From Subdoligranulum sp. CAG:314 (GTDB lineage: Bacteria; Bacillota; Clostridia; Christensenellales; CAG-314), in assembly GCA_000437915.1 (NCBI GenBank), contig FR901000.1:119244-183243 (forward strand): a stretch of 64,000 bases of DNA, given 5' to 3'. The translations under genes were made by a program, and so were the position numbers. Shown here piece after piece: positions 2,936 through 58,699 of this stretch. Numbering within the stretch: position 1 is the first letter of the stretch; every line of letters starts with the position of its first letter. Under the pieces are notes generated by a model. It was given only the letters and a program-made list of their open reading frames with translations, had not been told where the DNA came from and did no database searches.

Positions 2936-5900
2936 ATGAAACAAAGAACACTCAAACTTGCGGCGCTTGTTTTCGCGCTGCTCGCGCTCGTCTGCCTTGC
3001 CGCGGCTTGCGGAAAGGTCACGCACGAGGTGGTTTTCGACGCGGACGGCGGCTCCGCCGTGGTCGGGATAACCGTCGCGGACGGTCAAGCCATAGGCAAC
3101 GCTCCGCACTCGGAAAAAGAGGGCTGCAAGCTCAAAGGCTGGTCCGCCGACGGCGGAGAAACGCTCTTCGACTTCTCCACGCCCGTAACACGTCCGATGA
3201 CTCTCAAAGCGGTGTGGGAAAACGTCGCCTCCCAAACGCCGCAACAGCCCGTGACCGTCACCTTCGAGGACGACGGCAAGGTCATAGCACAAGTGACAAT
3301 CGAAAAAGGCGGCAAGGTTTTTGCCCCCGACTACTCCAAGGAGGGCTTTGAGCTTGTGTGGAAAAACGGCGGCGAGACGTTTGCTTTCGACACGGCAATC
3401 GACTCCGACTTGAATCTCGTTGCCGAGTTTTCCCCCGTCATGCTCAGCGTCACCGTGCAGGACGCGGACGGACTGCGCCTTGACGAGGTCGAGGTCGCCT
3501 ACGGACAGGCGGCGGACATTCAGCTCGAACCCACTCACTGGGCTTATCCCGAAATTTTCACCTTTTCGGGTTGGGACAAGCCCGTTGACTGCGTAAAGGA
3601 AAACATGACGGTAACGGCGGTTTACGACTACAAATCGCTTCCCGAAAGCCTGTTTTACTTCAATCTCCTCGACGACGGCACCTACGAAATAGCCGTCAAA
3701 CGCACGCTTGACTTCCGCTACATGAACCTTGACGGCGATTGGGGCGTGCCCGCGACCTTCAACAACAAACCCGTGTCGAAAATCGCCTCCTACGGCTTGT
3801 CGTCGCTTTACAAGGGCTTTAAGGACATAGACCTCCTCTACATACCCGAATCGGTAAAAATCGTGGACGCTTACGCCTTTGACGGTTTGGACATCCCCCG
3901 CGTGGACTTTGCGGGCTTGGAGCAAATTTGGGCTATGGCTTTTTTCAACTGCGCGTTTGAGCTGAACCTCCCCGCTTCTCTCTGCGAAATAGAGCCTTAC
4001 GCCTTTTTCCAGTTCGGTCTCATCAATCGGCTGAACAGCCAAAACGACCGCTCCGTCAATCTTTCCTCCGATTGCGAAAGCTTTTTCATGAGCGGGCTTG
4101 CCCTTTACTCCTCCGACGGCAGCGAGCTTGTGTATATAGATTACTTGAACCGCACTTCCGAAAACGCGGAGCTTGTAGTGCCCGACACGGTAAAAACCGT
4201 CTATCCCGCGCTGCTTTGGCAGGCATGGGGAATAGACTCCATCGTCTTTGAGGGGGACGTAGAAACCATCGGTTCGGGTTTTTTGTACAGTAACTCTATT
4301 CAATCCGTCACGTTCAACGGCAATGTAGAACGCATAGAGGGCGCGGAGGCGACCTACGAGCTGAAAGGAGCAATAACCCGCGACCACGCCTCCCAACTCA
4401 AAGCGGGCGCTTTTCAGCAATGCAGTCGGCTCGGTTACTCCGCCGATTTTACGCTGCCCCGCGGACTGAAATATATAGGCGACTTCGCATTTTTTGAAAC
4501 AGAGCTGAAAGAAGTCAGGCTTGACGGAGTCCAATACGTCGGAGAAGGCGCTTTCTATTGCCAATATTATGACAAATTCGATACCGTCGTCGTGACGAAC
4601 AGCGACAAATATTACAGCTACTTAGACCGCGCTTTGATAGAAAAAGGCACGGGCCCCCTTTTCAACGGCAAAGCGGGAGACACGTTTGTCCTTTACGCTC
4701 CCATTGTCGCAGAATACAACTTCAATAACGACGACTTTGACCCGGAAAACGCAGAGCAGTTTTTGACCGAAACATACACGGTGCCTCAGGGTGTGACGGC
4801 GTTCCGCCCGTTCGCATTCAATGACGTTTACGACATCAAGACTCTTGTAATCCCCGAGGGAGTGGTTTCCCTGCCGGCGGGCGTTGTCTTATCCGATTCC
4901 GTTTTTCAGGTATATGACCACGGTACATTCACCGAATATTATTTTGGAATAAGTCAAATAAGTTTGCCCTCCACTCTCAAAGAAATCAACTCCGAGTTGA
5001 ATTGGGAAAACGCTCTTGCAAACGAATCTTACCCCGCGTTGACTCTCGGCGAAAACTTCACGGGCTTTGTCTGGCCCAACGGCTGCAATCTCAAAAAAAT
5101 CGAGTATTACTCCATCCACACTAGACAAACGGAGGTGGAGCTGCCCGCAACCGTCACGGATTACTCCGCGTCGGGCTACGGCAACATGTATCTTGAAAAC
5201 ATAACGGTAGAAGAGGGCAACGGACGCTATCTTTCCTTCGGAGGTTGGCTGTACGAAAAAATCGGCGGCAACGAGCTGAGGCTCGTGCACATCCCCCGCG
5301 CTTCCGCAAACGCCGACGGAAAGCTGATTTTCCCCGACACGGGAGAATATATTCTTACTGAAATAGCCTCCCAAGCAGCATATGGCATTATTCCAAATTA
5401 TTCCGAAGAAGGCGAAGTTATTTTTGACGGAATAACGGAAATCGAGTTTCCCGACACGGTGCGCGTGATTTGTGACCTCGCGTTTAACGGCTGCTCGACT
5501 ATCAAGAGCGTGACGTTCCCCGCGGGAATAGAATATATCGGCACAAGGGCGTTTGCTCCGGCTCTCAATATCCAATCGATAACCTTCAACGGCATTTTGC
5601 CTCCGAAAATGGGCGAAAACGTCTTTTCAAATCCTTTCGGAGAGCCTCTTGCCAACGCAACAATACACATACCCAACGGCACTTACGCCTGTTGGTCGGC
5701 GTTTTTGGCAGAGTACGGAAAGCTGTACGGCATAAACTACTTCAAAGCGTTGGAAACGCCGCAAAGCTTCACCTACAATTTTGAAAGCAACGGCGGCACG
5801 GAGGTTGAAAGCGTGCAAAGCTACGACCTTTGGAGCCTCCCCTACACAGAGTGGGCGGGCGAAGGCGAAAGGTTTTTCCAAGGCTGGTTCACAAAGGACG

Positions 5901-26248: not shown

Positions 26249-27049
26249 TCAATCGGCTCTTTGTTCGATACGCTCGAACAATCCGTATTTATTTTTTATT
26301 CTGTTGAGTTTTTCTAAAAAAGGATTTGTCAAAAGCAGCAGAAAAACGACGTTTGACGCCGCGTACACCGCCATAAAGGGCAGACTCGACGCTATAAGCG
26401 CCGCATATCTCGACCAGCTCCAGCTGCCGTCGAAATTCAGGACAGACCATACGTCCATCATGACGGAAAACAACACTCCGCCCAATATTCCCGCCAAAAC
26501 AAGCAAAAAGCGGTTGGGCTTTTTGCCCCGCTTGAAAATCAGTCCCGACAAAAGTCCAAGGAATCCCCATACAAACATCTGAAACGGAGTCCAGGGTCCC
26601 TGTCCGTAAAATATGTTGGACACCACGGCGGACAAGGCGCCGGTCACGAAGCCCGCCTGCATTCCGTAGGCTATCCCCGTGATGATCACCATGGCGGTAA
26701 CGGGCTTGAAGCCGGGAAGCGGCGCGAAAATCAGTCGTCCCACAACGGACAGCGCCGTAAGCACGGCAATAACCACAAGCTCGCGCGCGCCCGTTTTTCC
26801 CCTTTCAAAGCCGATAAAAAACGGGACGCACGCCAAAAAAGCGATAATCAAAGAAATTATGTTGTATTTTCTGTCGTCAAACAGCTTTACTCCGATAAAA
26901 ATCGCCGCGGGGATGGCAATCAGATAAACGCATAAAGATATCACGCTGCGCCAACGCGGCGCAACCCTTTTGCGCTTTTTGGGCGATGCGGAGCTTTCCT
27001 CGACGACGTCTTCAAGCGGCATGGCAAAGCAAATCAGTTTTTTATCCAT
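26249..27049 (-). CDS. ECF transporter substrate-specific (S) component, candidate corrinoid-specific (CbrT-like)
   Basis: 266 aa with about 6 hydrophobic helices. Last gene of the riboswitch operon and overlaps the EcfA stop by 8 nt. Substrate assignment is inferred from context only. Confidence 0.6.
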   Translation of the reverse strand: MDKKLICFAMPLEDVVEESSASPKKRKRVAPRWRSVISLCVYLIAIPAAIFIGVKLFDDRKYNIISLIIAFLACVPFFIGFERGKTGARELVVIAVLTALSVVGRLIFAPLPGFKPVTAMVIITGIAYGMQAGFVTGALSAVVSNIFYGQGPWTPFQMFVWGFLGLLSGLIFKRGKKPNRFLLVLAGILGGVLFSVMMDVWSVLNFDGSWSWSRYAALIASSLPFMAVYAASNVVFLLLLTNPFLEKLNRIKNKYGLFERIEQRAD

Positions 27050-28724
27050 CTTTCAATCCGTTTTTCAAACAAATTTCCGTTACCATATCCACGGTTACGG
27101 CGTTTTTGTACAGCACCCGCGAAATTCTGCTTGCGGCGGTTGTGTAAAAGGCGTTGGCGGAAAAGAACTTTACCGGATTGGCAAGCGAAACGATTTTGCC
27201 ATCGAAAAACATACCGCATCTGTCAGAGTGCTCGGCGGCAAACTCCACGTCATGCGTGACCATGACGATTGTTTTCCCGCGAGCTTTCAGCCCGTAAAGA
27301 ATGTCGGCAAGCTCCTGCTTGGAGCAGGCGTCCAATCCCTTGGTAGGCTCGTCCAACAGAATTATTTCAGGCTCCATGAGCAGAATTTTTGCAAACGCCG
27401 CCTTTTGCTGTTCGCCGCCCGACAGGTCGTAGGGATGAGAGTCCAACAGCTTCTCTATTTTAAGCTCCCGCGCAACCTCGTTCACCCTTTCCTCCGCCTC
27501 GTCTCCCGAATAACCCATGATTAGGGCGGCTTCCTTCAAGTCCTCCTTGAGAACGCTCTTGACAAACAGCGTCTGCGGATTCTGCGGCAAGGAGGAAAGA
27601 TTTTTTCTGTACAGCGAATTTCCCGCGTATTCCTTTATTTTCTTTCCCCAGAACCGCAGTTTTCCGCTGTAAAGACGGCTTATGCCGCTCATGACCCTGA
27701 GCATGGTGGTTTTTCCCGCTCCGTTGCCGCCGAGTATGCACAAAATCTCGTTTTTGTAAACCGTAAGCGACAGACCGTTAAGCACATCGGGCAGATTTCT
27801 TTCGTACCTGAAACAGCCCTCTGAAATTTCCACAGCCTTTTCCCTTTCGGAATAATCCTCGTCGGACACATCGTAACCGGGATAACGGTTGCCGTAATTT
27901 TTTTCCAGAAACTGCCTGCTTTCTCCGACGGTAAGCGGACAATCCCCCTTTGCGTCAAGCCGTCCGAATATCCTTATCCCCGACGGAAGCCCCGCAAGCA
28001 TTTTGTGCGGCTTGTCGGACGCTTTGAGAATGTTTCCTACGTTTCTCGGCGTATCCGTCAAAAAAATGCGGGCTTTGTCCATAAGCACCGCTTTGTGCGC
28101 CAGCGGAAACACCTCCTCCAATCTGTGCTCCGCCAACAGCACGGTAGTGCCTAGCTCCGTGTTGATTTTTTTCAGCGCTCCGATAAAATCCGACGCGGCA
28201 ATCGGGTCGAGCTGCGCCGTCGGTTCGTCCAGAACAAGTATTTCGGGCTGCATAGCCATGACTGACGCAAGATTCAACAGCTGCTTCTGACCGCCCGACA
28301 ATTCGCAGGTACGCTTTCTGTACCAGTCGCCGATTCCGAAAAAGCCGCAGATTTCCGCAACGCGGCGGCGAATTTCGTCCGACTCCGTACCGAGGCTTTC
28401 AAGCCCAAACGCCAGCTCGTGCCAAACCTTGTCGGTGACAATCTGATTGTCGGGATTTTGCATGACGAAGCCGATGTCCGTGACGGCCGTCCTGTCGTCA
28501 AGGTCGTCTATTTCCACGCCCTTGTAAAATATGCCGCCGCTTTTTGTGCCTTTGGGACGCAGCTGCTTTTTAAGCAGCCTCAATAGGGTGCTTTTGCCGC
28601 AGCCCGACTCACCGCACAGCACGACAAATTCTCCGCGCCCGATAGTCAAGCATATATTTTCCAAAGCCTTTTCATCTCTGTCGGGATAAGAAAAGCTCAG
28701 ATTTTCGAGCGTAAGGATTGCCAC
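27042..28724 (-). CDS. ecfA: ECF transporter fused double ATPase (EcfA-EcfA')
   Basis: 560 aa. Two Walker A motifs (GESGCGKST, GGNGAGKTT), two LSGG signatures and two Walker B motifs (LVLDEPT, ILLDEPT). Confidence 0.9.
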   Translation of the reverse strand: MAILTLENLSFSYPDRDEKALENICLTIGRGEFVVLCGESGCGKSTLLRLLKKQLRPKGTKSGGIFYKGVEIDDLDDRTAVTDIGFVMQNPDNQIVTDKVWHELAFGLESLGTESDEIRRRVAEICGFFGIGDWYRKRTCELSGGQKQLLNLASVMAMQPEILVLDEPTAQLDPIAASDFIGALKKINTELGTTVLLAEHRLEEVFPLAHKAVLMDKARIFLTDTPRNVGNILKASDKPHKMLAGLPSGIRIFGRLDAKGDCPLTVGESRQFLEKNYGNRYPGYDVSDEDYSEREKAVEISEGCFRYERNLPDVLNGLSLTVYKNEILCILGGNGAGKTTMLRVMSGISRLYSGKLRFWGKKIKEYAGNSLYRKNLSSLPQNPQTLFVKSVLKEDLKEAALIMGYSGDEAEERVNEVARELKIEKLLDSHPYDLSGGEQQKAAFAKILLMEPEIILLDEPTKGLDACSKQELADILYGLKARGKTIVMVTHDVEFAAEHSDRCGMFFDGKIVSLANPVKFFSANAFYTTAASRISRVLYKNAVTVDMVTEICLKNGLKDG

Positions 28725-29578
28725 AGAATATTCTCCTTTATTTCAATAACGGTGGAAAGCCACGCCAGCGCAGTCAACGCGGCGTACAGTGCGACGGCAT
28801 ACGGGCTTAGGTCGAGAGGCGAAAACGCGGGATAATAACTAAACTCCCCGTATCCGCAGGACATCGCAAAGCATACCGCCGCGACAAAAACCAAAATAAC
28901 CGCCAGCACAACGCTGTCCCGCGCGCTCCACGCAAACACGGAATAGCTGCTCCTTCCCTTTAATCCGTAGCCGCGCGCGCGCATGGAATCGCCCGTTTCC
29001 ACCGAACTTTCGAGACTCCACGTGACCAGAATGCTCATCACGCGCATTTTGCTTCTCAGTCTGTCCACAAAGCTCTTGGAGGTGTAAGTTCCCAACGCCT
29101 TCTGCGCGCTGTCGATTTCCTTGTAACGCCTTTTCAGCTTGGGAATAAAGCCGAGCGTCATGGACAAAAGGAGCGCAAGCTTGGGGATAACCCTTCCGAA
29201 CAGATAAATAAATTTGTCGGAACTCATGACCGCGTTGAAGCATTTGAACCAGTAAAACACCGACATAATCATGACTCCCACGGCAAAGCCGTAGCAGACG
29301 GCTTCGAGAGTTACGGGATTGTCGTTCATGAAAAACAAAATCGTTTCTCCGTTGTGGGAAAAAATCGGATTAGTCAAAGAAATGAGCAGCAGCACGGGAA
29401 CGGAATATGCAAGACTTGACGCAAGCTTTCTTGCGCCGACCAGCATACCGCAGAACGAAACCGCCCCGAAAAACGAAACGGCAAGCAAAACGGGGTTGAC
29501 GGTAAACATGGTTATGAATATCATCGCCGAAAAATAAATCATCGGAATGACGGGATGCATTTTTTCAAACGCCTTCAT
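28697..29578 (-). CDS. ecfT: ECF transporter transmembrane (T) component
   Basis: 293 aa polytopic membrane protein with the EcfT-type ARG coupling motif (SMRARGY). Confidence 0.85.
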   Translation of the reverse strand: MKAFEKMHPVIPMIYFSAMIFITMFTVNPVLLAVSFFGAVSFCGMLVGARKLASSLAYSVPVLLLISLTNPIFSHNGETILFFMNDNPVTLEAVCYGFAVGVMIMSVFYWFKCFNAVMSSDKFIYLFGRVIPKLALLLSMTLGFIPKLKRRYKEIDSAQKALGTYTSKSFVDRLRSKMRVMSILVTWSLESSVETGDSMRARGYGLKGRSSYSVFAWSARDSVVLAVILVFVAAVCFAMSCGYGEFSYYPAFSPLDLSPYAVALYAALTALAWLSTVIEIKENILWQSLRSKI

Positions 29579-30119
29579 CGTAGAACCATCCGCCTCCCAC
29601 GTCTCGCCCCAAATCGCAGGTGTAAACCCACTCTATCACGTCGCCGTCTTTGAGCACATACTTGCTGCACCCGTAATTGGGAAATTGTCCGTTCACCTTG
29701 TACATCCACCCCGAAAGCGGTCCGCAGGAAAATTCGTAAAGAAAATTTATGCCTCTTATGTACACGCTTCCGAATGCGTTTTCGTTGGCGCCCTGATATT
29801 CCATCTGAATTTTGTTGTGTCTGACCGCTCTGTTCAAAATATCGTAAACCGTGTCGTCTTTCCGCAAAACATATTCGGTTTGTTCAAGGATAATCCCGTC
29901 GGACGGAACGTATTTTTCAAAACGCAGGCTTTCGTCCAGGTCGTCCCAGTTGTCGAGTATTGTCCCGCATTCTATGCTTAAAAACACGGTTTCGCTTTCC
30001 GGCGTTATATCGTCAAGATGCGTAAGATAGTAGTCCTCGACAGACTGAAATTTAGTGCCTGCGCAAAGAATCGCAATGAGAAACGCCACTATTGCGACAG
30101 CCAGAAAATCCTTTTTCAT
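29565..30119 (-). CDS. DUF4430 (transcobalamin C-terminal-like) domain protein, membrane-anchored
   Basis: 184 aa. N-terminal hydrophobic anchor, then LSGWMYKVNGQFPNYGCSKYVLKDGDVIEWVYTCDLGRDVGG, the characteristic DUF4430 signature. Confidence 0.75.
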   Translation of the reverse strand: MKKDFLAVAIVAFLIAILCAGTKFQSVEDYYLTHLDDITPESETVFLSIECGTILDNWDDLDESLRFEKYVPSDGIILEQTEYVLRKDDTVYDILNRAVRHNKIQMEYQGANENAFGSVYIRGINFLYEFSCGPLSGWMYKVNGQFPNYGCSKYVLKDGDVIEWVYTCDLGRDVGGGWFYDEGV

Positions 30120-32032
30120 TCGTCACTCTCCGGCATGGCGTTAAGCGCCTTTAATTTTTTTCTTTTGCGTATGTTAAAGAAAAGCCATACGGCGACCGAC
30201 ACGGCGACAGCACCGACGCAAATACCCGTCACAAGCGCCGCAAAAAGATTGTCCGCCTGAGTTTTGCTTTTGACAAGTCCCTCTATGTCCGACGCTTCGA
30301 GCTGCGCTCTGTCGTATTCGGACAAGGCAAGGTATCTGTCGTAAAGCTCGTGCACGGTCTTTCTCTTGCTCAGAGTTATCGAATCGAAGGGATAAAGCTC
30401 CTCTTTTATCGCTTTTCTCAACGCCTCTATCTCGGCGTAAATGGCGTCAATCTCGTTTTTGGCTTTTTCCAGCTTTATTGTATATTCCTGTTTTCCGTCA
30501 AAGTCAACGCTGTTGTTTATTTTGCTCCACAGCCTGAGCACCTCCGACCTATAAGCGGTGGTCAAGGTTTCGGGCAAACCTACGAGCGCCTCTATATCGG
30601 ACGGGGAGAAATACTCGGTGGGCACGGTTACTCCCGCGTCGCCGCTGTTGTATTGCAGCTCTTCCTTTTCAAAAGGTATGTCAGCCGCGACAAGCAACAC
30701 GGACAGGTCTTTGTAGTTTGAAACATAGCTGCGCTCCTCGACGGGTATTTCAAGGTAGGCGTCGTAAACCTCTTTAAGTTCGACGACAGAAGCGTCGGGA
30801 GTAAGCCCGCTTATTTTAAGCTCGACGTCCTTTATCAAAAGGCGCAGCTTTTCGCTCTGCTCCTCGCGGAAGTCGTAAAGTCTCCTTTTCCCCTCGAGAA
30901 ACCTCACAAGCGCGGTCAAACCGTAAAGCGTCTGTTCGCTCGCCATTGTGTTGGGCATACCCGCAACCGCCGTCGGATTGTCCTCGTCGTTTACGTAAGA
31001 ATGCGTAAACCCTCCCGACGACGTCCGATATTTCATTATTCCGTCCAAAAGCGTGTTGGGCAATCCGTCGTCCCCCGTTTTGACGAATCTTTCGTCCGTC
31101 AAAGGGTTTATTCCGAGAGAAGTAAGAGCGACGAGCACCTGAACGGTGCTTTCGCAATTGGGCATCCCCCAGCTGAAATAATCGCCGTCCTGCCTCTGCG
31201 TGCGGGACAGAAGCGCAACCGCTTTGTCGCACGCCTCCCTCACCTTCATGACGACGGGAAGCTCGGAAATATTCTCGTTTAAGTAGGTATATTCTTTTTC
31301 GCTGTTGTAATAAGGCGCAAAACATTGAAGCGTCATCGCCGTAATATCGGGGTCGGAAACGCTGCCGGTCAGCGCCCAGCCGCCGTCCGCAAGCTGCAAT
31401 CCGAGTATCTGAACGATAATGTCGTCGCGCGAATAATAAGCTCCCTCCGGTATTTCGTAATACATGCTGTCCAGCGTTATCAGTCCCCAGATAAGACCGT
31501 TTATGCCCTGTCTTCCAAGGCTCCCCTTTCCGTTTTCGTCCACACGAGCGTAAGTCCCGTCGGCAATCAGGTCTATATCGCCTCTGCCGTCGCCGTCGCG
31601 GTCCTCTCCGAAAGCGCGCGGATTGCCTCCCGAAGCAAGCACGGCGAGAGAAATTCTGTGCCATTCGGTAGCTTTCGCCCTGTCCAGCTTGTCTGGACCG
31701 TCATACCTTTTTTGCACGTTGTCGCTGAGAACGGCAAGATATCCCGCCTGATTGTCCTCCACTCCCAGTCTTCCCAGCCCTATCGGAAACCAGTCGCCGG
31801 GAGTCGTGCCCGCCTGTTCCAGAAACGCGTCGTTGAAAAGAAATCCGTCTTTTTCCGCGCCGACGTCGTTTTTTTTCCACTCTATGATGCCGTAAGCCGT
31901 CTCACGTATACTGTCCGCCGAAATTTTCTCCGTCTCAACCGACGCAAGACAAAGGGCAGGGACGCCCAAAGGCGTTCCTGCCGAAACAAAAATCGATAAA
32001 ATCACCAACAATGCGAAAACAAATTTTTTCAT
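30116..32032 (-). CDS. Alpha/alpha-toroid (prenyltransferase / terpene-cyclase-like repeat) protein with C-terminal membrane anchor
   Basis: 638 aa with a signal peptide. QW-type repeats (LQLADGGWAL, RTQRQDGDYFSWG, YRTSSGGFTH). A coiled C-terminal part, a TM helix (LFAALVTGICVGAVAVSVAVWLFF) and RKRKK. Confidence 0.65.
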   Translation of the reverse strand: MKKFVFALLVILSIFVSAGTPLGVPALCLASVETEKISADSIRETAYGIIEWKKNDVGAEKDGFLFNDAFLEQAGTTPGDWFPIGLGRLGVEDNQAGYLAVLSDNVQKRYDGPDKLDRAKATEWHRISLAVLASGGNPRAFGEDRDGDGRGDIDLIADGTYARVDENGKGSLGRQGINGLIWGLITLDSMYYEIPEGAYYSRDDIIVQILGLQLADGGWALTGSVSDPDITAMTLQCFAPYYNSEKEYTYLNENISELPVVMKVREACDKAVALLSRTQRQDGDYFSWGMPNCESTVQVLVALTSLGINPLTDERFVKTGDDGLPNTLLDGIMKYRTSSGGFTHSYVNDEDNPTAVAGMPNTMASEQTLYGLTALVRFLEGKRRLYDFREEQSEKLRLLIKDVELKISGLTPDASVVELKEVYDAYLEIPVEERSYVSNYKDLSVLLVAADIPFEKEELQYNSGDAGVTVPTEYFSPSDIEALVGLPETLTTAYRSEVLRLWSKINNSVDFDGKQEYTIKLEKAKNEIDAIYAEIEALRKAIKEELYPFDSITLSKRKTVHELYDRYLALSEYDRAQLEASDIEGLVKSKTQADNLFAALVTGICVGAVAVSVAVWLFFNIRKRKKLKALNAMPESDE

Positions 32033-33867
32033 GACAAATTCAAACCGTAAGCGGCAATCAGCTCATTGTATACTCTGTCCACAAGCTCCTGCGAAGCGTC
32101 CCAGACGGAAATTTCCTCAACCGCTTTTGCGTACGCTTCTTCGCCCGAACCGTAAAATTCATTTTCTCTTATCAGAGCGAGCAGCTTGTTCACCCGTGCG
32201 TAATCCGCAAACTCGGCAAAGTCCGAGCCGGAGCCGCCCGTAGAGTCTCCGCCGCCCACGTCGCGCCCCAGCGCAAGCGTAAAGCATACGCGCACCACGT
32301 CGCCGTCCTGCGGAAAATAATCGGCAAAGCCGTAGTTGGGAAAGGAGCCGTTGACGCTGTACATCCAACCCGAGCCGCTTGTGTAATCGAATTCTCCGAG
32401 ACTGTACCTGCCGTCGTCGTCTTTTTGCAGAGTATAAGAAAAAACTTCCAGACGCTCCGCAAGTCCGTCGGCGATTCTGTTTCCGTCCAGGTCAAGTCCC
32501 TTTATCGACGCCAGATAAAAGCCCGAATCAAGCTCGCCCGTATATCGGTATTCAAGCCCGTAAGCGCTCAGCAGACGCGTCAGCGTCACGGAAAAGGGTT
32601 CGCCGTCGAAAACCGTGAGCAGCATGGGTTCGATAAAATATCCGCAGCCTACGGTAAAGCCTTCGAGCGAAAAGACGACCTCTCCTATTTCGCCGTCGGC
32701 GCCCGCGCCGACATAGGTCATTCTGAACGTCTGCACGGTCTGCCTGCCGAAAGCCTCCGCAACGACGCGGAACAAAAACGCTTTTCCCTTGCAGCCCTCA
32801 AAAACGCCAGCCTCGAAATTTATACGATAGCTTGTCTTTTCGGAATCCGACCACACCTTCTTCAAATCGGATTGTCCCAACGCTACGAAGTCGTCCCGCC
32901 CGTCGTCGGCGTCCATATCCGCGAAAAACGACAGAGAGTTGTCGGGCAGCTTTGCTCCCAAAGCGTCCTCCGCCGTCACCTCGAAGGTAAAAACGCTGCC
33001 CTTGTATTCCTTGCCTTCCTCCAACGAAAGCCTTTCAAAGCGCGGAGGCGCGTCGGAATACCGCACCGAAAACAGCTCGGTTTTTTGCATGGAGCCGCTG
33101 CGCGCGGTTACGCGCACCTCGTACTCCCCCGCCTGCGGCATAACGAGAAGATAATTCCCGTCATTTGGAGAAAGAACATCTCCGTTGACCGTCACCTCCG
33201 TTTCGCAGGCAACCTTGCCGTAAGTCGTTCTCACCGCAAAGCTCAATGTGTCCGACGCCGTGTCCTGAGAGACAAGCGTCGTATTCACCTTGAATCCCTC
33301 GTAAAAAACCGTCTCCGTCAAGGTTGACGCGGCGTCGCCGCTCCTTGCGCTCAGAACAAACTCGTGCTGCTTGTTTTCGGTAAGCTTAAACTCGTATTTT
33401 CCGTCTGAAACGGGACTGATAAGCTTTCCGTCGGCCGTCACCGTCAGCGCACAGCTCTCGTCGTTGCAATAGGCGGCGGCGGAAAAATAAAGCACGTCGT
33501 CACGTATCACGCGCTCGGACAAATCCGTACGCACAACAAAATCCGCCCTGTAAACAATGTTGTAGCTGCGCGTCTCCTTTTTGGAGCCCTTTTTCGCGGT
33601 GAGCAGCACGGCATTGTCACCCTCGTTCAGATATACGGTAAATCTTGTCCCGTCGCTCTTTGCCGTTATTCCGTTGCAGCGCACTTCTATCTCGCATCCG
33701 ACTCCGCCGCAGGTGGCAGTGGCTCCGAAGGAGTACTGCGGAGCGCTTACAACCAGTCCGTCGACAATATCGGTTGCAAAGACAAAGGCGCTCCCGCATG
33801 CGGCGGCAATACACAGCACGGCGGCAAGAACAACGGCAATGGACAGGATTTTAATTGCTTTTTTCAT
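32029..33867 (-). CDS. Surface lipoprotein with tandem Ig-like/cadherin-like beta-sandwich repeats and a C-terminal DUF4430 domain
   Basis: 612 aa. Lipobox IAAAC-GS. About four repeats of the pattern T..VNG..L.......Y.......GE...V.A.SG......T..V.Y. C-terminal GSGWMYSVNGSFPNYGFADYFPQDGDVVRVCFTLALGRDVGG. Confidence 0.7.
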   Translation of the reverse strand: MKKAIKILSIAVVLAAVLCIAAACGSAFVFATDIVDGLVVSAPQYSFGATATCGGVGCEIEVRCNGITAKSDGTRFTVYLNEGDNAVLLTAKKGSKKETRSYNIVYRADFVVRTDLSERVIRDDVLYFSAAAYCNDESCALTVTADGKLISPVSDGKYEFKLTENKQHEFVLSARSGDAASTLTETVFYEGFKVNTTLVSQDTASDTLSFAVRTTYGKVACETEVTVNGDVLSPNDGNYLLVMPQAGEYEVRVTARSGSMQKTELFSVRYSDAPPRFERLSLEEGKEYKGSVFTFEVTAEDALGAKLPDNSLSFFADMDADDGRDDFVALGQSDLKKVWSDSEKTSYRINFEAGVFEGCKGKAFLFRVVAEAFGRQTVQTFRMTYVGAGADGEIGEVVFSLEGFTVGCGYFIEPMLLTVFDGEPFSVTLTRLLSAYGLEYRYTGELDSGFYLASIKGLDLDGNRIADGLAERLEVFSYTLQKDDDGRYSLGEFDYTSGSGWMYSVNGSFPNYGFADYFPQDGDVVRVCFTLALGRDVGGGDSTGGSGSDFAEFADYARVNKLLALIRENEFYGSGEEAYAKAVEEISVWDASQELVDRVYNELIAAYGLNLS

Positions 33868-33869
33868 GC

Positions 33870-36293
33870 TCAGGCAACGTCGACGTTTTTGAACTCGACT
33901 CTTGCTATTTCGTTCCCGTTTTCGTCCGAAAGCGTCGCGACAAAGGTAAACGCGTCGAAAATCATCATGTACTTGCTGCTTATATCGCTATAAGACACCT
34001 TGACCGTTATCACTCCGTTTTCTTCGGAAACAACGGTAAAAGGAACGGTGTACTCAGTTCCCCAGGACGCAACCATTTTCAAGGTCAGCCTGTCGGAAGA
34101 AATAGGCGCTCCAGACGAATCCTTCGCCGTAATCGTAAGAGTAATATCGCCGCTTATTTTGTCCCCGTCGGCAATACCGGCGACGGAAAACTGCGGCGGC
34201 GCGATATAAATCATTTCATACTCCTCGCGCAGAGTTTCGTCCTGAGACACGCTGAACGAAACAGCCAGCTTGAAATTGTCCTCCACCTCGTACCACATCG
34301 TCAAAAGATTGTCAAAGTCAAGCGCTATTTCCGCAACGGTGTCATTTGCGGAATAAGTAACGGTATAATTGAAGCCCTCGCTGAGAGTAGTAAAGTTAGG
34401 CGCAGACATTCCGCAGTCAACCGCTATTGAAAGCCTGTCCTTGACCGAAACCGCGTTGCCGTCCGCATCCTTTACCGTGACGGTAAAGGTCGAGCCGTCC
34501 GTTTCTCTGTTAAGCCCGTCTTTTTTGAGAGAGCTTTCTATTTGCAGCTGCTCGGTTTTTTCCACCGCAAAGCTCCACGATTTTTCGGCGTTGTTCTTTT
34601 CGACGCAAACCGCCGTTACAACTATTTCGTTTTCGCCGAGCGCTAGGCTTACCGAACAGTTTTTGCCGTCAACCGTGCCGTTTGTCTGCGCGGTATTGTT
34701 GTAAACGGAAATCTGACAGTCATATTCGCCGTAATTTACGCTCGCCGTAAATTCCAGCGTCGTCTTTGCGGTTGTCATTTCGTCGGCAATGCCGACGAAA
34801 GTTTCCTCGAAGAAGTAATACTTTTCGCCGTAAGAAACGGTCGCCGAGCCGTTCCAGCCGCGCCCTAGCTCGCAGAGAGTTCCGTCCTGATAATAACCCC
34901 GTTCGTCGAAAGAAACGGCAACGGTCGCCTGCTCGGCTATGCCGGCGAAAGCGTTGAAGCCGATAAAGGACAAACTGCAAGCTTCGAGATTGACCGATTC
35001 AAGAAGAACGGCGTTTTCAAAAGCTCTGCCCCAGATTCTTTGGAGCGAAGCAGGGGCGGTGTATTCCTTAACGCCGCACGCCGCGGGAAAATTGATTAGC
35101 TGCGTTTTGTCCGCAGTATACATAATGCCGCCGTCCGAGGTAAAATAAGGGTTTAGCCCGTCGATTTCGATGCTCTCCAAAGCGTCGCAGTCGCCGAACA
35201 TATCGGCATTTTCGCTTTCAAGATAGGTGCTGTAACCGCCTATGTATCTTAGCGAATAGGGCAAGGACACTTTTTTTAGCGACGAACACAGCTTGAACGC
35301 GTCCCTCTCGATGCTTTGAAGCGACTCGCACTCGGAAAGGTCGATTTCCGTCAGTTGAGTTTGATACTCGAAGCATTTCTGCCCGATAAATTCCAAAGAT
35401 ACGCAGCCCGAAAAGTCAACCGTTTTGAGTTTTGTATCCATTGCGGGATACCTGCCGACAAAAGCAGAGCTTGAAACGGTGGTGAGCTTGCTCAGACCTT
35501 TTAAAGAAACAAATTCAAGCTCGCCGCAGTTTGAAAAGGCAGAGCTGCCTATTGTTTCCAATTCGACGGCGCCGTCAAGATAAACCTTTTTTACGTCGGA
35601 ATAAGAAAAAGCATAGGCGCCTATTTCCGTGATTTTGTTGCCCTCCGCGTCCGTCGCGGGCAATACGACTATGTCGCCGTCAAAGCCGTCGGCAAGACCG
35701 CTCAACTTCACCTTTCCCTCTTCCTCCGTCTGCGAAAATTCAAACATTTCCGCAGGAGTGAAATTCATCTCGTACCGAGCGGTAAAGGTAAGCGGCTGCG
35801 TAACTGCCACGTTTGCGTCCGCCGCATAATCCGTCGAGCCGCTTTTCCACCCGACAAAGCTATACAGGTCCGAATCCGACGGCTCCGCGACGTAATCCGA
35901 AAGCGCCAGCGTATAACCGTGCTCCGCCTTCAAACTGTCCGCGCCCGTCATTTTGCCTTCTCCCGCGTCGAAAACGACGTCGTAGCTTTTTAAGGTATAA
36001 TGCGCGACAAGCGTGATGTCCCCTTTGATTATTATCGAGTCGGAGGCGGAGTATTCGACGGAGCCGGCGCTCCACCCCTTGAAATCATACCCCTCCTTTT
36101 GCGGAGCATAATTTTCGAGTTGCAGCACGCTGTCCTCCTCGACTTCAAGCCCCGCGCTCAAATCGCGCCCCTCCACAACGCCGCCGTCAAGCTCGAACGT
36201 GACGCTGTAAACCTTAGGCTCGCCGTCGCAGGCGGCAAAAACCATAAGCGCCGCGACAAGGCACAAAACAATCAGCAAAATTTTTTTCTTCAT
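33870..36293 (-). CDS. Surface lipoprotein with Flg_new repeats, BspA-type LRRs and Ig-like domains; first gene of the cobalamin-riboswitch operon
   Basis: Start moved to the ATG at 36293 (MKKKILLIVLCLVAALMVFAAC-DG lipobox, AAGGAGA SD). The ORF-track extension to 36632 runs through the riboswitch. Confidence 0.8.
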   Translation of the reverse strand: MKKKILLIVLCLVAALMVFAACDGEPKVYSVTFELDGGVVEGRDLSAGLEVEEDSVLQLENYAPQKEGYDFKGWSAGSVEYSASDSIIIKGDITLVAHYTLKSYDVVFDAGEGKMTGADSLKAEHGYTLALSDYVAEPSDSDLYSFVGWKSGSTDYAADANVAVTQPLTFTARYEMNFTPAEMFEFSQTEEEGKVKLSGLADGFDGDIVVLPATDAEGNKITEIGAYAFSYSDVKKVYLDGAVELETIGSSAFSNCGELEFVSLKGLSKLTTVSSSAFVGRYPAMDTKLKTVDFSGCVSLEFIGQKCFEYQTQLTEIDLSECESLQSIERDAFKLCSSLKKVSLPYSLRYIGGYSTYLESENADMFGDCDALESIEIDGLNPYFTSDGGIMYTADKTQLINFPAACGVKEYTAPASLQRIWGRAFENAVLLESVNLEACSLSFIGFNAFAGIAEQATVAVSFDERGYYQDGTLCELGRGWNGSATVSYGEKYYFFEETFVGIADEMTTAKTTLEFTASVNYGEYDCQISVYNNTAQTNGTVDGKNCSVSLALGENEIVVTAVCVEKNNAEKSWSFAVEKTEQLQIESSLKKDGLNRETDGSTFTVTVKDADGNAVSVKDRLSIAVDCGMSAPNFTTLSEGFNYTVTYSANDTVAEIALDFDNLLTMWYEVEDNFKLAVSFSVSQDETLREEYEMIYIAPPQFSVAGIADGDKISGDITLTITAKDSSGAPISSDRLTLKMVASWGTEYTVPFTVVSEENGVITVKVSYSDISSKYMMIFDAFTFVATLSDENGNEIARVEFKNVDVA

Positions 36294-36384: not shown

Positions 36385-36413
36385 AAAAAAAATCTCCCGA
36401 TTGTCCCGGGAGA
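36385..36413 (-). terminator. Riboswitch expression-platform terminator
   Basis: Minus strand reads TCTCCCG-GGACAAT-CGGGAGA followed by T8, 92 nt upstream of the first start codon. Confidence 0.75.
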
Positions 36414-36479: not shown

Positions 36480-36633
36480 CGCCCAAGAATGTATTACCTT
36501 TTGGCAATAAGGCAGGTCTCCCGACTTATGGCGACTGTGCGCCAAATACGGTAATGGCTGTTGCGACGGATTCTCACCGCTCTTCCCGCTGTTGACCGCT
36601 TGACAAGCGTCGTTGCTTGACTTCGGAACCAAA
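36480..36633 (-). promoter_or_regulatory. Cobalamin (B12) riboswitch aptamer
   Basis: Minus strand reads GGTTCC...AACAGCGGGAAGAGCGGTGAGAATCCGTCGCAACAGCC...GCCATAAGTCGGGAGACCTGCC. This matches the conserved GGGAA/GGTGnnAATCC core and the B12 box (AGTCGGGAGACCTGCC). Confidence 0.8.
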
Positions 36634-36650
36634 TTGCTTATTCAATTGAG

Positions 36651-36662
36651 AGTATTGTAGCA
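36651..36662 (-). promoter_or_regulatory. Extended -10 promoter element upstream of the riboswitch
   Basis: Minus strand reads TGCTACAAT (TGn + TACAAT), about 20 nt before the aptamer. No good -35 at canonical spacing. Confidence 0.4.
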
Positions 36663-36787
36663 CAGTTTTTCAAAACAGTACAGCGTTTTGAATAAAAATT
36701 TTTCCGAACATACGCGCGCGTCGAGAAAGCGTCCGCGTCTTTTTCAAGTACGCTCCGACGTAGAATCGAAAGGACGTTAACGCGTTT

Positions 36788-47303: not shown

Positions 47304-48290
47304 ATGAATACCACCGTAAAAAAATTAAAAGTCTTGAAGCTGATTATCTTAACGCTCGTTGCGGCAGGCATTTTGCTTGCGCTTACCGCTTGCGGCTCCG
47401 CCGACTCTCTCGAATTCAAGTTAATCATGGACGAATATTACGTCGTAACGGATGTAAAAGAAGATTATCCCCAAAAAATCGTCGTGCCGTCCAAATACGA
47501 AGGACTGCCCGTAAGGGAAATAGGCTCATCTGCGTTTGCGAATTGCAAAAATTTAAAAAGCGTCGTACTCCCGAACAGCATCCGATTTATAAACATAAGA
47601 GCTTTCTACAATTGCGTATTGCTTGAAGAAGTCCGATTGGGCAGCAACGTGAAAAGCATAGGTCACAGCGCATTTTCGGGCTGCGAAAAGCTTAAAAAAA
47701 TAACCATTCCCGCAAAAACGGAAAAAATCGGGGATTACGTTTTTTCGGGCTGCGACAACCTCGAAACAATCACGGTAAAGAGCGGAAACAAAATTTACAG
47801 CGGGACGGGTAAATGCCTGACAGAGAAAAAAACCAAAACGCTTTTGGCGGGCGGAACAAAAAGCAAAATTCCAGACGACGGCTCCGTTGCCACAATCGGC
47901 GAAAACGCGTTTGCGGGGCGGAACATAAAAAATATCGTTGTTCCAGACGGAGTTACTTTGATAAAACAAACGGCTTTCGGCGAGTGCCGCGAACTCGAAA
48001 CCTGCATTTTGCCTGACGGATGCGAGATAGAGCAAGCTCTGTTCTGTTTTTGCGACAATCTGAAATGGGTGGTTTTGCCCCAAAGCATAACGTACATCGA
48101 CCTTTATTGCTTCGGCTATTGCAGCTCGCTTCAAAGTATTTTTTACAAAGGCACCGAGCAGCAATGGGAAAATGTGGAAGTCGTTGAAACGCGCGGCGAA
48201 AAAGTATATTTTTACAGCGAGGAAAAGCCCGCGCAAAACGACGGCAGCTATTGGCATTTCGACAGCGCCGGCAACCCCGTCGTTTGGTAA
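47304..48290 (+). CDS. BspA-type leucine-rich-repeat lipoprotein (short paralog)
   Basis: 328 aa. Lipobox LALTAC-GS. Repeated I.IP..V..IG..AF.GC..L LRRs. AAGGAGG SD. Confidence 0.8.
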   Translation: MNTTVKKLKVLKLIILTLVAAGILLALTACGSADSLEFKLIMDEYYVVTDVKEDYPQKIVVPSKYEGLPVREIGSSAFANCKNLKSVVLPNSIRFINIRAFYNCVLLEEVRLGSNVKSIGHSAFSGCEKLKKITIPAKTEKIGDYVFSGCDNLETITVKSGNKIYSGTGKCLTEKKTKTLLAGGTKSKIPDDGSVATIGENAFAGRNIKNIVVPDGVTLIKQTAFGECRELETCILPDGCEIEQALFCFCDNLKWVVLPQSITYIDLYCFGYCSSLQSIFYKGTEQQWENVEVVETRGEKVYFYSEEKPAQNDGSYWHFDSAGNPVVW

Positions 48291-57914: not shown

Positions 57915-58699
57915 GCGGCGGACTTTACAATACCTCCAACAAAAAATTCGACACCACTCTCAACCTCAAAGAGCTGCGCCCCTACGGCGACACAATGAAC
58001 GACGGAAAGGTTCAGATGAGCTTCACTCTGCCCGTAAAAAACGACGACAAGGGGCAGGAGGCGGCGATTCAGCTTGCCAAAAAAATGGGACTCAACGAGC
58101 CTTCGGTGGCGTGCGCCAAGACGTTGGACGAGGAATTTACCTTTTACATCGTTTACGGCGAATGCGCGTATTCCGTCGACTACACCTCCATTTCCGTGCA
58201 GACGGTGGACAACGACGTCATGAGCATGGAGGAAACGGACGAATTTATCAGAGAAAATTTCGGCCGCAAGCTTGTGGTTGTAGGCGCTTCCACGGGGACC
58301 GACGCGCACACCGTCGGTATAGACGCCATTATGAACCGCAAGGGCTTTGCAGGACACTACGGACTCGAACGCTACGATATGATAGAGGCATACAATATGG
58401 GCAGTCAGGTGCCCAACGAGGAATTTATCGCCAAAGCCAAAGAACTCAAAGCCGACATACTGCTTGTAAGTCAGACTGTCACGCAAAAGGGAATACATAT
58501 CGAAAATCTAACCAATCTCGTGGAGCTTATGGAGGCGGAGCACCTGCGCGACAAGGTGGTGCTTTGCTGCGGCGGCGCAAGAATCACGCACGAGCTTGCA
58601 AAGGAGTTGGGCTACGACGCGGGCTTCGGTCCGGGCAAATATGCCGACGACGTAATTTCTTTCGCCGTGAACGAAATGCTTAAACGCGGCATGAAATAA
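57911..58699 (+). CDS. kamE: Lysine 5,6-aminomutase beta subunit (cobalamin-binding)
   Basis: 262 aa. ATGA overlap with kamD. B12-binding DxHxxG motif (TDAHTVGID). Confidence 0.85.
   Translation: MSGGLYNTSNKKFDTTLNLKELRPYGDTMNDGKVQMSFTLPVKNDDKGQEAAIQLAKKMGLNEPSVACAKTLDEEFTFYIVYGECAYSVDYTSISVQTVDNDVMSMEETDEFIRENFGRKLVVVGASTGTDAHTVGIDAIMNRKGFAGHYGLERYDMIEAYNMGSQVPNEEFIAKAKELKADILLVSQTVTQKGIHIENLTNLVELMEAEHLRDKVVLCCGGARITHELAKELGYDAGFGPGKYADDVISFAVNEMLKRGMK

Follow-up and report, generated by a model that had tools for sequence, protein, structure and literature searches.

A leucine-rich repeat lipoprotein gene behind a cobalamin riboswitch: a candidate accessory of corrinoid capture in a Clostridia lineage

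The DNA considered here is a 64,000-nucleotide stretch (the window) of contig FR901000.1 from Subdoligranulum sp. CAG:314, a member of the Clostridia order Christensenellales (assembly GCA_000437915.1, positions 119,244 to 183,243). Its subject is a gene on the minus strand, 33870..36293 (-), that encodes a leucine-rich repeat (LRR) lipoprotein of 807 amino acids (aa) followed by a stop codon. A sequence-only reading of the window had described this gene as the first and largest behind a cobalamin (vitamin B12) riboswitch, and both the open reading frame (ORF; 36293..33870) and a match to Rfam family RF00174 confirm the description. The gene opens an operon of seven genes, of which it is the longest, and the junctions between these genes overlap or are 2 nt apart; that between the LRR gene and the next gene reads TGA-GC-ATG (2 nt). 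Comparison with relatives suggests, moreover, that the LRR gene is a genuine and selected member of the B12 regulon, in that its orthologs are restricted to operon-bearing genomes and lie in B12 contexts.

The aptamer of the riboswitch is located at 36494..36648 (-) and matches RF00174 with 38.8 bits (gathering score 31.5), with no gene between it and the LRR gene. No other cobalamin riboswitch was found in the source genome (1.5 Mb, 95% complete). Just 5′ of the aptamer, a possible extended -10 element, TG-c-TACAAT, can be read at 36654..36663 (-); a consensus promoter scan did not report it. On the other side, an intrinsic terminator at 36385..36413 (-) is formed by a GC-rich 8-bp stem (hairpin 36413-36393) and a T8 tail, followed by the Shine-Dalgarno sequence AAAAGGAGA and the ATG at 36293. 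Together, the B12 riboswitch and the intrinsic terminator are predicted to gate transcription of the LRR gene. Aligned with the riboswitches of relatives, the aptamer proves to be a short variant: most of them have a long P6 extension that is missing here. Short variants are also present in genomes G075 (locus L027, 14206-14353 (-)) and G079 (contig C48; L029, 3515-3668 (-)), both missed by Rfam, and such variants may represent a different ligand-selectivity class. More generally, Rfam misses the short riboswitches of G075, G079-C48, G016/G025, G063 and L061, which are recovered by an nhmmer profile built from the riboswitches of the family. Some riboswitch calls therefore rest on this home-made profile: the match in G075 arises by construction, since G075 is part of the profile, and the matches at L061, L019, L020 and L028 are weak and cover the conserved core only.

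The LRR lipoprotein begins with MKKKILLIVLCLVAALMVFAAC, as read off the ORF translation. Residues 1-22, encoded by 36228..36293 (-), form a predicted signal peptide with lipobox, an assignment based on the sequence and on conservation among orthologs. A lysine-rich n-region (MKKK) is followed by a hydrophobic stretch and the lipobox VFAAC, ending at Cys22, and A21 and C22 are conserved in at least 90% of the orthologs. Two Listeria-Bacteroides (Flg_new) repeats occupy residues 28-176 (35766..36212 (-)): Pfam Flg_new (PF09479) detects two copies with 64.9 bits (cut-off 27), TIGR02543 scores 31 bits (cut-off 20.95), and a hidden Markov model (HMM) made from the first Flg_new repeat of the orthologs matches residues 28-100 and 104-175. 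The BspA-type LRR (LRR_5) region with its conserved C-terminal cap, residues 216-499 (34797..35648 (-)), is recognized by Pfam, Foldseek and phmmer; Pfam LRR_5 (PF13306) covers residues 222-355 with 84.1 bits (cut-off 27.7), and LRR_8 is borderline (28.6 versus a cut-off of 27). The remainder of the chain consists of three immunoglobulin (Ig)-like domains. D1, a cadherin-like beta-sandwich common to the neighboring DUF4430 lipoprotein, spans residues 500-582 (34548..34796 (-)) and D2 residues 583-699 (34197..34547 (-)), both identified with hhalign and HMMs, and the D2-like C-terminal domain D3 spans residues 700-807 (33873..34196 (-); HMM). Over the last 300 residues, Pfam reports Big_1 and Invasin_D3, both below cut-off. 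Neither a NEAT domain nor an internalin-specific family is among the Pfam matches of the protein.

An AlphaFold2 model built on 11 orthologs has a mean predicted local distance difference test score (pLDDT) of 87.3 and shows two small beta domains, an LRR solenoid (approximately residues 216-465) with its cap and, from residue 500 onward, three beta-sandwich domains that extend to the C-terminus. The top Foldseek matches are PcpA (4cp6; E 1.2e-11, template modeling (TM) score to target 0.59), 4h09 and 4gt6, and the E values for matching LRR_5 structures range from 1.2e-11 to 9e-9. A phmmer search against the PDB likewise returns 4cp6, 4fs7 and 4h09 (E 7e-12 to 5e-8). After the LRR_5 structures, the fold matches are generic Ig-like arrays and S-layer proteins.

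The Ig-like region ties the LRR protein to the product of the next gene, a lipoprotein of 612 aa with three D1 domains, one D2 domain and a DUF4430/SLBB domain (32029..33867 (-)), which starts 2 nt past the LRR stop codon. In an hhalign comparison, residues 486-668 of the LRR protein match residues 186-402 of this presumed B12 binder with a probability of 99.2% (E 8.5e-20). The D1 HMM is found once in every LRR ortholog, as three to four tandem copies in most DUF4430 lipoproteins of the LRR-bearing clade, and as one to two copies in the fusion and outgroup proteins discussed below. The D2 HMM is found in one to four copies in the LRR orthologs and once in the binder, directly before the DUF4430 domain. 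Across the whole genome, the D1 and D2 HMMs match only the LRR gene and the neighboring DUF4430 gene; none of the 31 other LRR-family ORFs (0/31) is matched. When residues 486-807 were searched with phmmer against 1.84 billion representative proteins, only 16 proteins matched, and all ten that were scanned (10/10, nine of them full length) have the same Flg_new/LRR_5 build. In a D1 tree of low resolution, the LRR-type copies are separate from the positional copies of the binder and there is no within-genome clustering, which suggests that the duplication is old and that both lineages have been maintained. Judged from its sequence, the LRR protein is a chimera that joins the common surface head of this lineage (Flg_new and LRR_5) to the D1-D2 module of the binder.

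That surface head is indeed common. An HMM of the LRR region matches 32 ORFs, amounting to 7.5% of the bases of the source genome (~1.5 Mb), and LRR or Flg_new together account for 41 ORFs and 9.4% of the genome. This greatly expanded LRR_5/Flg_new family includes proteins of up to ~2,800 aa (e.g., C24:189103-197610 and C24:347448-355829). Within the window, five other genes had been credited with the same build as the LRR lipoprotein. This applies to those at 2936, 6619 and 48652, which carry lipobox, Flg_new and LRR_5, but not to the gene at 47304, which has a lipobox and LRR_5 without Flg_new, nor to that at 60104, which has Flg_new without LRR_5. The further observation that the C-terminus differs from the module of the three large paralogs was borne out: these can be aligned with one another almost end to end and match only the N-terminal half of the LRR lipoprotein, which has the Ig-like region instead. 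Because the LRR family is so frequent in this genome, it is not very surprising to find a member next to the riboswitch, and this finding from one genome alone is by itself weak evidence. Chance linkage is excluded by its conservation across genera.

The evidence for this conservation is comparative, and the genomes compared are related metagenome-assembled genomes (MAGs), some of which are 72-88% complete. The operon, traced by its presumed alpha/alpha-toroid protein (see below), was found in 12 of the family's 82 species genomes; a few more distantly related members of the order have it too. When the best 12 candidates per genome were scored, LRR orthologs with E<=1e-25 were found in operon-bearing genomes only. 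Every ortholog with readable surroundings is in a B12 context, which covers about ten distinct lineages with no exception. A riboswitch reaching the Rfam gathering score is positioned directly 5′ of the LRR gene in the window, in G014, G003, G080 and G095, and at loci L057 and L058; at L059, such a riboswitch precedes cobA and the LRR gene. The LRR gene heads the operon behind the riboswitch in the window, G014 (L015), G080 (L026), G095 (L031 and L025) and G075 (L027); the aptamer upstream of the LRR gene in G075 is one of the short variants and is recognized by alignment only.

The same picture emerges from large protein databases, in which the ortholog group is sharply bounded: eight clusters score at least 884 bits with at least 84% coverage, and the best paralog reaches 583 bits with 27% coverage. 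All eight clusters (8/8) are in B12 context. Locus L057 has the riboswitch, the LRR gene and the full operon; L058 the riboswitch and the LRR gene; L059/L060 the riboswitch, a small gene, cobA, the LRR gene and the full operon; L061 the LRR gene, the DUF4430 gene and the toroid gene; and L062 cobA, the LRR gene and a lipoprotein gene. L063 belongs to a strain of the species in the window. The cobA genes directly 5′ of the LRR gene at L059 (9468-9977) and L062 (1-215) encode a CobA/BtuR-type corrinoid adenosyltransferase (PF02572), and at these two loci the LRR gene is therefore flanked on both sides by B12 genes. As a negative control, unrelated LRR_5 paralogs from other phyla were examined in a scan with a five-sequence alignment, and none of them adjoins operon genes. 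A single source name was found among the orthologs, 'leucine-rich repeat protein'. Collectively, these data indicate that the LRR orthologous group is confined to the B12 context, as far as gene neighborhoods can tell.

In G003 (L018), the LRR gene forms a unit by itself. A riboswitch of its own, cut at the contig end, precedes it, followed by a terminator (196-221). To the 3′ side of the LRR gene there is a strong 13-bp terminator (3078-3107), then a promoter-like site, and then a second, full riboswitch (3576-3766) that precedes the DUF4430 gene. The separate riboswitch and terminator suggest that selection has kept B12 control on the LRR gene itself. The sequence-only reading had named a B12-independent promoter of the gene's own among the findings that would refute its interpretation; G003, with its LRR gene under its own riboswitch and bounded by terminators, shows the opposite of such a promoter.

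Relative to the proteins of the window, identity increases along the operon, being 30-44% for the LRR protein, 26-47% for the Ig-DUF4430 lipoprotein, 43-64% for the toroid protein and 62-80% for the small DUF4430 protein. Among the LRR orthologs, mean pairwise identity is 48% for the first Flg_new repeat, 44% for the LRR and cap, and 28-36% for D1-D3; the first Flg_new repeat and the LRR/cap are thus the best conserved parts. The Ig-like array also appears to vary in length within species. The members of one 90%-identity cluster (P0021) are 908, 1011, 1039 and 1120 aa long, with steps of approximately one D2 unit, and in the strain of the window's species (L063 2813-5209) there is an in-frame deletion of ~60 residues in D3.

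The genes that follow the Ig-DUF4430 lipoprotein gene are those of a binding and import system. The first encodes a secreted protein of 638 aa with a C-terminal membrane anchor (30116..32032 (-)). It gives only a sub-threshold Pfam match to SQHop_cyclase_C and is presumed to be the alpha/alpha-toroid partner by its likeness to the operons described in PMC1796856. Next is a small membrane-anchored DUF4430 protein of 184 aa (29565..30119 (-)), which matches Pfam DUF4430 with 69.2 bits. Of the 18 top PDB matches of its AlphaFold2 model (pLDDT 66.8), 16 are beta domains of transcobalamin, intrinsic factor or haptocorrin, with a TM score of 0.66 to the transcobalamin beta domain 5no0; the remaining two are the Ruminococcus gnavus protein 3u7z. 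A phmmer search of this protein against the PDB gives no match, and the likeness emerges from the fold comparison only. Modeling thus suggests that the partner DUF4430 protein has a B12-carrier fold, like that of the transcobalamin beta domain. The last three genes encode the components of an energy-coupling factor (ECF) importer: the T component (29578..28697 (-); Pfam CbiQ), a fused A1A2 ATPase (28724..27042 (-); Pfam ABC_tran, twice) and the S component (27049..26249 (-); Pfam ECF_trnsprt and ECF-ribofla_trS). The S component matches general S-component Pfam families only, and a folate-family NCBIfam model scores 33.3 bits against a cut-off of 60; its specificity for B12 is assigned from context alone.

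The organism appears unable to make B12, since searches of the source genome revealed no CobS, CbiB or PduO-type adenosyltransferase, and it appears to have a defined need for the vitamin. Only one B12-binding domain of the genome exceeds the Pfam cut-off; it is encoded at 58274-58648 (+) of the window, within a lysine-fermentation gene cluster ~20 kb from the B12 operon, and resembles the beta subunit of lysine 5,6-aminomutase. B12 thus appears to be needed at least for an enzyme of the lysine 5,6-aminomutase type, and its uptake may mainly serve lysine fermentation here.

With moderate confidence, we favor the reading that the LRR lipoprotein is a lipid-anchored surface protein, made when intracellular B12 is low, that acts through protein contacts as a dispensable accessory of Gram-positive corrinoid capture and import. 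In this model, the cobalamin riboswitch would limit production of the LRR protein to conditions of low intracellular B12. The LRR head, as the best conserved part, would be the ligand-binding element and would act by protein-protein contact. It would either assemble or hold the operon's own transcobalamin-like binders, or dock a foreign, protein-bound source of B12. The corrinoid would then be handed to the DUF4430 and toroid binders and on to the ECF S component. As ligands, the transcobalamin-like proteins encoded in the operon, or the corrinoid, are as compatible with the data as foreign carriers.

Several observations weigh against the proposed role. No known B12-binding domain was found in the LRR protein, either among Pfam matches (E<=0.01) or among the 50 best PDB fold matches; the folds considered were the BtuG propeller, the BtuH C-terminal domain, BtuJ/DUF4465, DUF4430/SLBB, the transcobalamin alpha-toroid and BtuF. 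The LRR is near the lipid anchor and the Ig-like domains are distal, which is odd for an outermost receptor. The LRR gene evolves faster than any other of the operon (30-44% identity, versus 54-80% for the binder and transporter genes), which also fits a generic, variable surface adhesin. Moreover, all operon-bearing genomes are related MAGs, so that the independent observations are fewer than the loci. Finally, the gene is often missing. The expectation that syntenic riboswitch operons would always carry an LRR gene did not hold, since the operon includes it in only six of the family's 12 operon-bearing genomes; of the other six, three have as first gene a fusion of Flg_new to DUF4430 (Flg_new::DUF4430) without LRR, and three show no trace. 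As it is absent from approximately half of the family's operons, the LRR protein is not required for uptake, and it is in this sense that we regard it as a dispensable accessory, as is BtuH in Bacteroides.

The distribution of these absences points in part to loss. In the toroid-protein tree, G016, G025 and G049 form the outgroup, and their operons lack LRR and Flg_new. G004 is nested beside G080 and has no LRR gene, and its position among LRR-bearing relatives therefore suggests loss. The first gene on contig C48 of G079 (L029 2388-3368 (-)) is a fusion: residues 1-101 of its product share 79% identity with the N-terminal 101 residues of the G075 LRR protein, and residues 104-325 share 49% identity with the DUF4430 end of the G075 binder. 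These matches clearly indicate an in-frame deletion, by which the LRR was lost together with every Ig-like domain. Flg_new::DUF4430 first genes of a similar kind, with other breakpoints, are present in G063 and G023, and the differing breakpoints in the three relatives argue that the LRR was removed repeatedly by deletion. The Flg_new repeats of the G063 and G023 fusions are of the type found in the B12-linked LRR protein (E 1e-20 to 1e-28, versus 1e-4 to 1e-8 for the paralogs in the window); remnants of the LRR were searched for in the fusion proteins and none was found. In all three fusion genes, L029 2388-3368 (-), L028 9082-10890 (-) and L017 1148-3349 (+), the signal peptide and first Flg_new repeat are joined in frame to DUF4430. 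The most parsimonious account is that the gene was gained once, at the base of a 13-member clade (support 100/99), and lost three or four times thereafter.

G079 had also been considered as a second case, after G003, of a separate locus with LRR gene and riboswitch, and was rejected: the start of the LRR protein reads the same as in G080, the riboswitch scores 207.8 bits, as does that of G080, and the upstream ORFs of 208, 341, 169 and 199 aa match those of G080 in size and order. This genome (2.1 Mb, 3% contamination) has a G075-like operon on contig C48 (L029) and a G080-like riboswitch with an LRR fragment on contig C49 (L030). Either a mixed bin or two systems within one genome would probably account for this. 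The second contig may be mis-binned, or it may carry a full G080-type operon that continues past the contig end.

Among the alternatives, the one that survives best is a special case of the protein-contact accessory role. As the sequence-only reading proposed, the LRR head would dock a foreign B12-loaded carrier, such as host intrinsic factor, haptocorrin or transcobalamin, or a microbial corrinoid-binding protein or vesicle, from which the operon's transcobalamin-like binders would then strip the vitamin. LRR_5 repeats form protein-binding surfaces and the closest structures (PcpA, 4h09 and 4gt6) are surface proteins. Consistent with such docking are also the conserved control by B12 starvation, the conservation of the LRR head among orthologs, and the lack of a known B12-binding fold in the protein. 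Precedents exist as well: IlsA, a NEAT-LRR protein, binds ferritin and haemoglobin (PMC3923779), and BtuG of Bacteroides takes B12 from intrinsic factor (PMC6143338; PMC13616437). However, the gene was lost more than once, ortholog identities of 30-44% do not obviously point to one conserved host ligand, and the LRR adjoins the membrane anchor, below the wall that a large carrier must penetrate. We consider this alternative unlikely. The same holds for its most explicit form, argued by analogy, in which the protein would be a B12 piracy receptor for holo-carriers or vesicles of the host or of Bacteroides, with a logic like that of Isd/IlsA; we think it doubtful.

That the LRR protein might instead bind the corrinoid directly, as a new kind of extracellular B12 binder comparable to HupY, is suggested by the streptococcal HupY/LrrG itself. 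This metal-regulated LRR adhesin, which has no known haem-binding domain, is required for haem use and binds haem in vitro (PMC6593403). B12 loci, moreover, often encode accessory binders with new folds, e.g., BtuH and BtuJ, and the D1-D2 module is common exclusively to the LRR protein and a B12-binder protein. Nevertheless, neither Pfam nor Foldseek reveals a likeness to known B12-binding domains, the NCBIfam equivalog model for HupY/LrrG (NF047961) scores 26.8 bits against a cut-off of 1250 and reflects a local LRR match only, and the operon already has two DUF4430 domains and a presumed toroid. Direct binding is therefore a reading to which we give little credence.

The data have also to be compared with the possibility that the protein is an adhesin induced by B12 starvation that relocates the cell to B12 producers, mucus or food particles and has no part in uptake chemistry. 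Its membership in the expanded adhesin-like family (32 ORFs, 7.5% of the genome), its fast evolution, its variable repeat number and its dispensability would all fit. What this explanation leaves unaccounted for is why the binder's Ig-like module occurs in this paralog alone, and why the gene is linked to the binder genes, or flanked by cobA and binder genes, in nearly all lineages; we regard it as improbable. Least of all do we favor a passenger, i.e., a member of the expanded LRR family that landed behind the riboswitch and has no B12 role: the frequency of such genes, which makes adjacency in a single genome weak evidence, and the loss of the gene in several relatives would suit it, but an ortholog kept across genera at 30-44% identity with all its domains intact, a G003 gene with a separate riboswitch and terminators, an ortholog group confined to B12 contexts, and a specific Ig-like module common with the binder leave it disfavored and very improbable.

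The accessory role can be compared with known systems. The BspA-type LRR_5 proteins that match best, PcpA (4cp6), EUBVEN_01088 (4h09), FAEPRAA2165_01021 (4gt6) and 4fs7, have the same repeat family, fold and display on the surface of Firmicutes. None of them has a described link to a vitamin regulon or a D1-D2 module, and PcpA is anchored by choline-binding repeats, whereas the LRR lipoprotein has a lipobox and Flg_new repeats. Closer in setting are BtuG, BtuH and BtuJ of Bacteroides, which are likewise lipid-anchored, located in riboswitch-controlled B12 loci, accessory and unevenly distributed (PMC8941943, PMC6143338, PMC13616437), and BtuH likewise joins Ig-like domains to a functional head. 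Their folds differ from that of the LRR protein (a beta-propeller, the BtuH globular domain and DUF4465, respectively), and all three bind B12 directly. Moreover, they serve a two-membrane cell with a TonB-dependent transporter, in contrast to the presumably single-membrane cell and ECF importer considered here.

The same logic, an LRR surface protein induced by cofactor shortage together with uptake genes, is seen in HupY/LrrG and in the NEAT-LRR proteins IlsA, Hal and Shr (PMC6593403, PMC3923779, PMC2777315). Members of this group differ in having 22-residue internalin-type LRRs, LPXTG or SLH anchors, and MtsR or Fur repressors rather than a riboswitch. In NEAT-LRR proteins, the cofactor-binding domain and the LRR are in one chain, whereas here the cofactor-binding domain is on a neighboring polypeptide, and the likeness is functional only; HupY has no sequence relationship to the LRR lipoprotein beyond the LRR. 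In terms of modules, Listeria internalin B contains the same kinds (LRR, an Ig-like domain fused to the LRR end and a Flg_new-type B-repeat) but has them in another order (here Flg_new, LRR, Ig-like), with another LRR class (here LRR_5) and with GW repeats instead of a lipid anchor.

Bacterial operons that combine transcobalamin-like SLBB (DUF4430) and alpha/alpha-toroid proteins with CbiQ/CbiO were predicted in 2007 by Burroughs, Balaji, Iyer and Aravind, who noted that SLBB can be fused to Ig-fold and other surface modules and that one operon may encode paralogous SLBB proteins (PMC1796856). The rest of the present operon is of this type, and the added element is the separate LRR gene with the Ig-like module of the binder. 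The 2007 article has no occurrence of LRR or leucine-rich and mentions no Listeria-Bacteroides-repeat partner. A full-text literature search for LRR/BspA proteins with a cobalamin riboswitch returned nothing relevant and no published link between LRR proteins and B12; no published test of the predicted Firmicutes DUF4430/toroid operons was found. According to a 2026 review, whether binders of the BtuH/BtuJ type take part in extracellular capture in Gram-positive Firmicutes 'remains entirely uncharacterized' (PMC13616437). An LRR-type accessory in a Gram-positive ECF B12 system is new, whereas accessory surface lipoproteins in Bacteroides B12 loci are established.

B12 is a contested nutrient in the gut, and the surface capture relay has been well studied in Bacteroides (BtuG, BtuH and BtuJ). 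The conserved, riboswitch-controlled LRR protein is a new candidate part of Gram-positive extracellular B12 capture; with it, unusually, a single member of a huge and uninformative 'adhesin-like' family gains a physiological context. If the LRR head binds a protein-bound B12 source, it would become apparent how a very common lineage of B12-dependent gut Clostridia competes for the vitamin with the host and with Bacteroides; if it binds corrinoid directly, a new B12-binding fold would be at hand. The operons with the LRR gene, without it and with deletion fusions constitute a natural comparison set.

Thus far, the discussion has centered on the LRR-bearing clade and its closest relatives. Elsewhere in the order, other families have giant surface proteins (1,400 to >2,300 aa) that incorporate DUF4430- and toroid-like segments together with cadherin-like, aBig_2, Big_9 or GLUG modules (L021 1-6804 (-), L016 3-4229 (+), L022 3431-10360 (+) and L023 3308-9343 (+)). 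LRR and Flg_new were searched for in the giant DUF4430/toroid proteins of G040, G060, G055, G049 and G004, and none was found; recruitment of the LRR thus appears to be confined to one clade. In G049, the giant protein is under its own riboswitch (L021, 6978-7184 (-)) and is divergent from the ECF operon.

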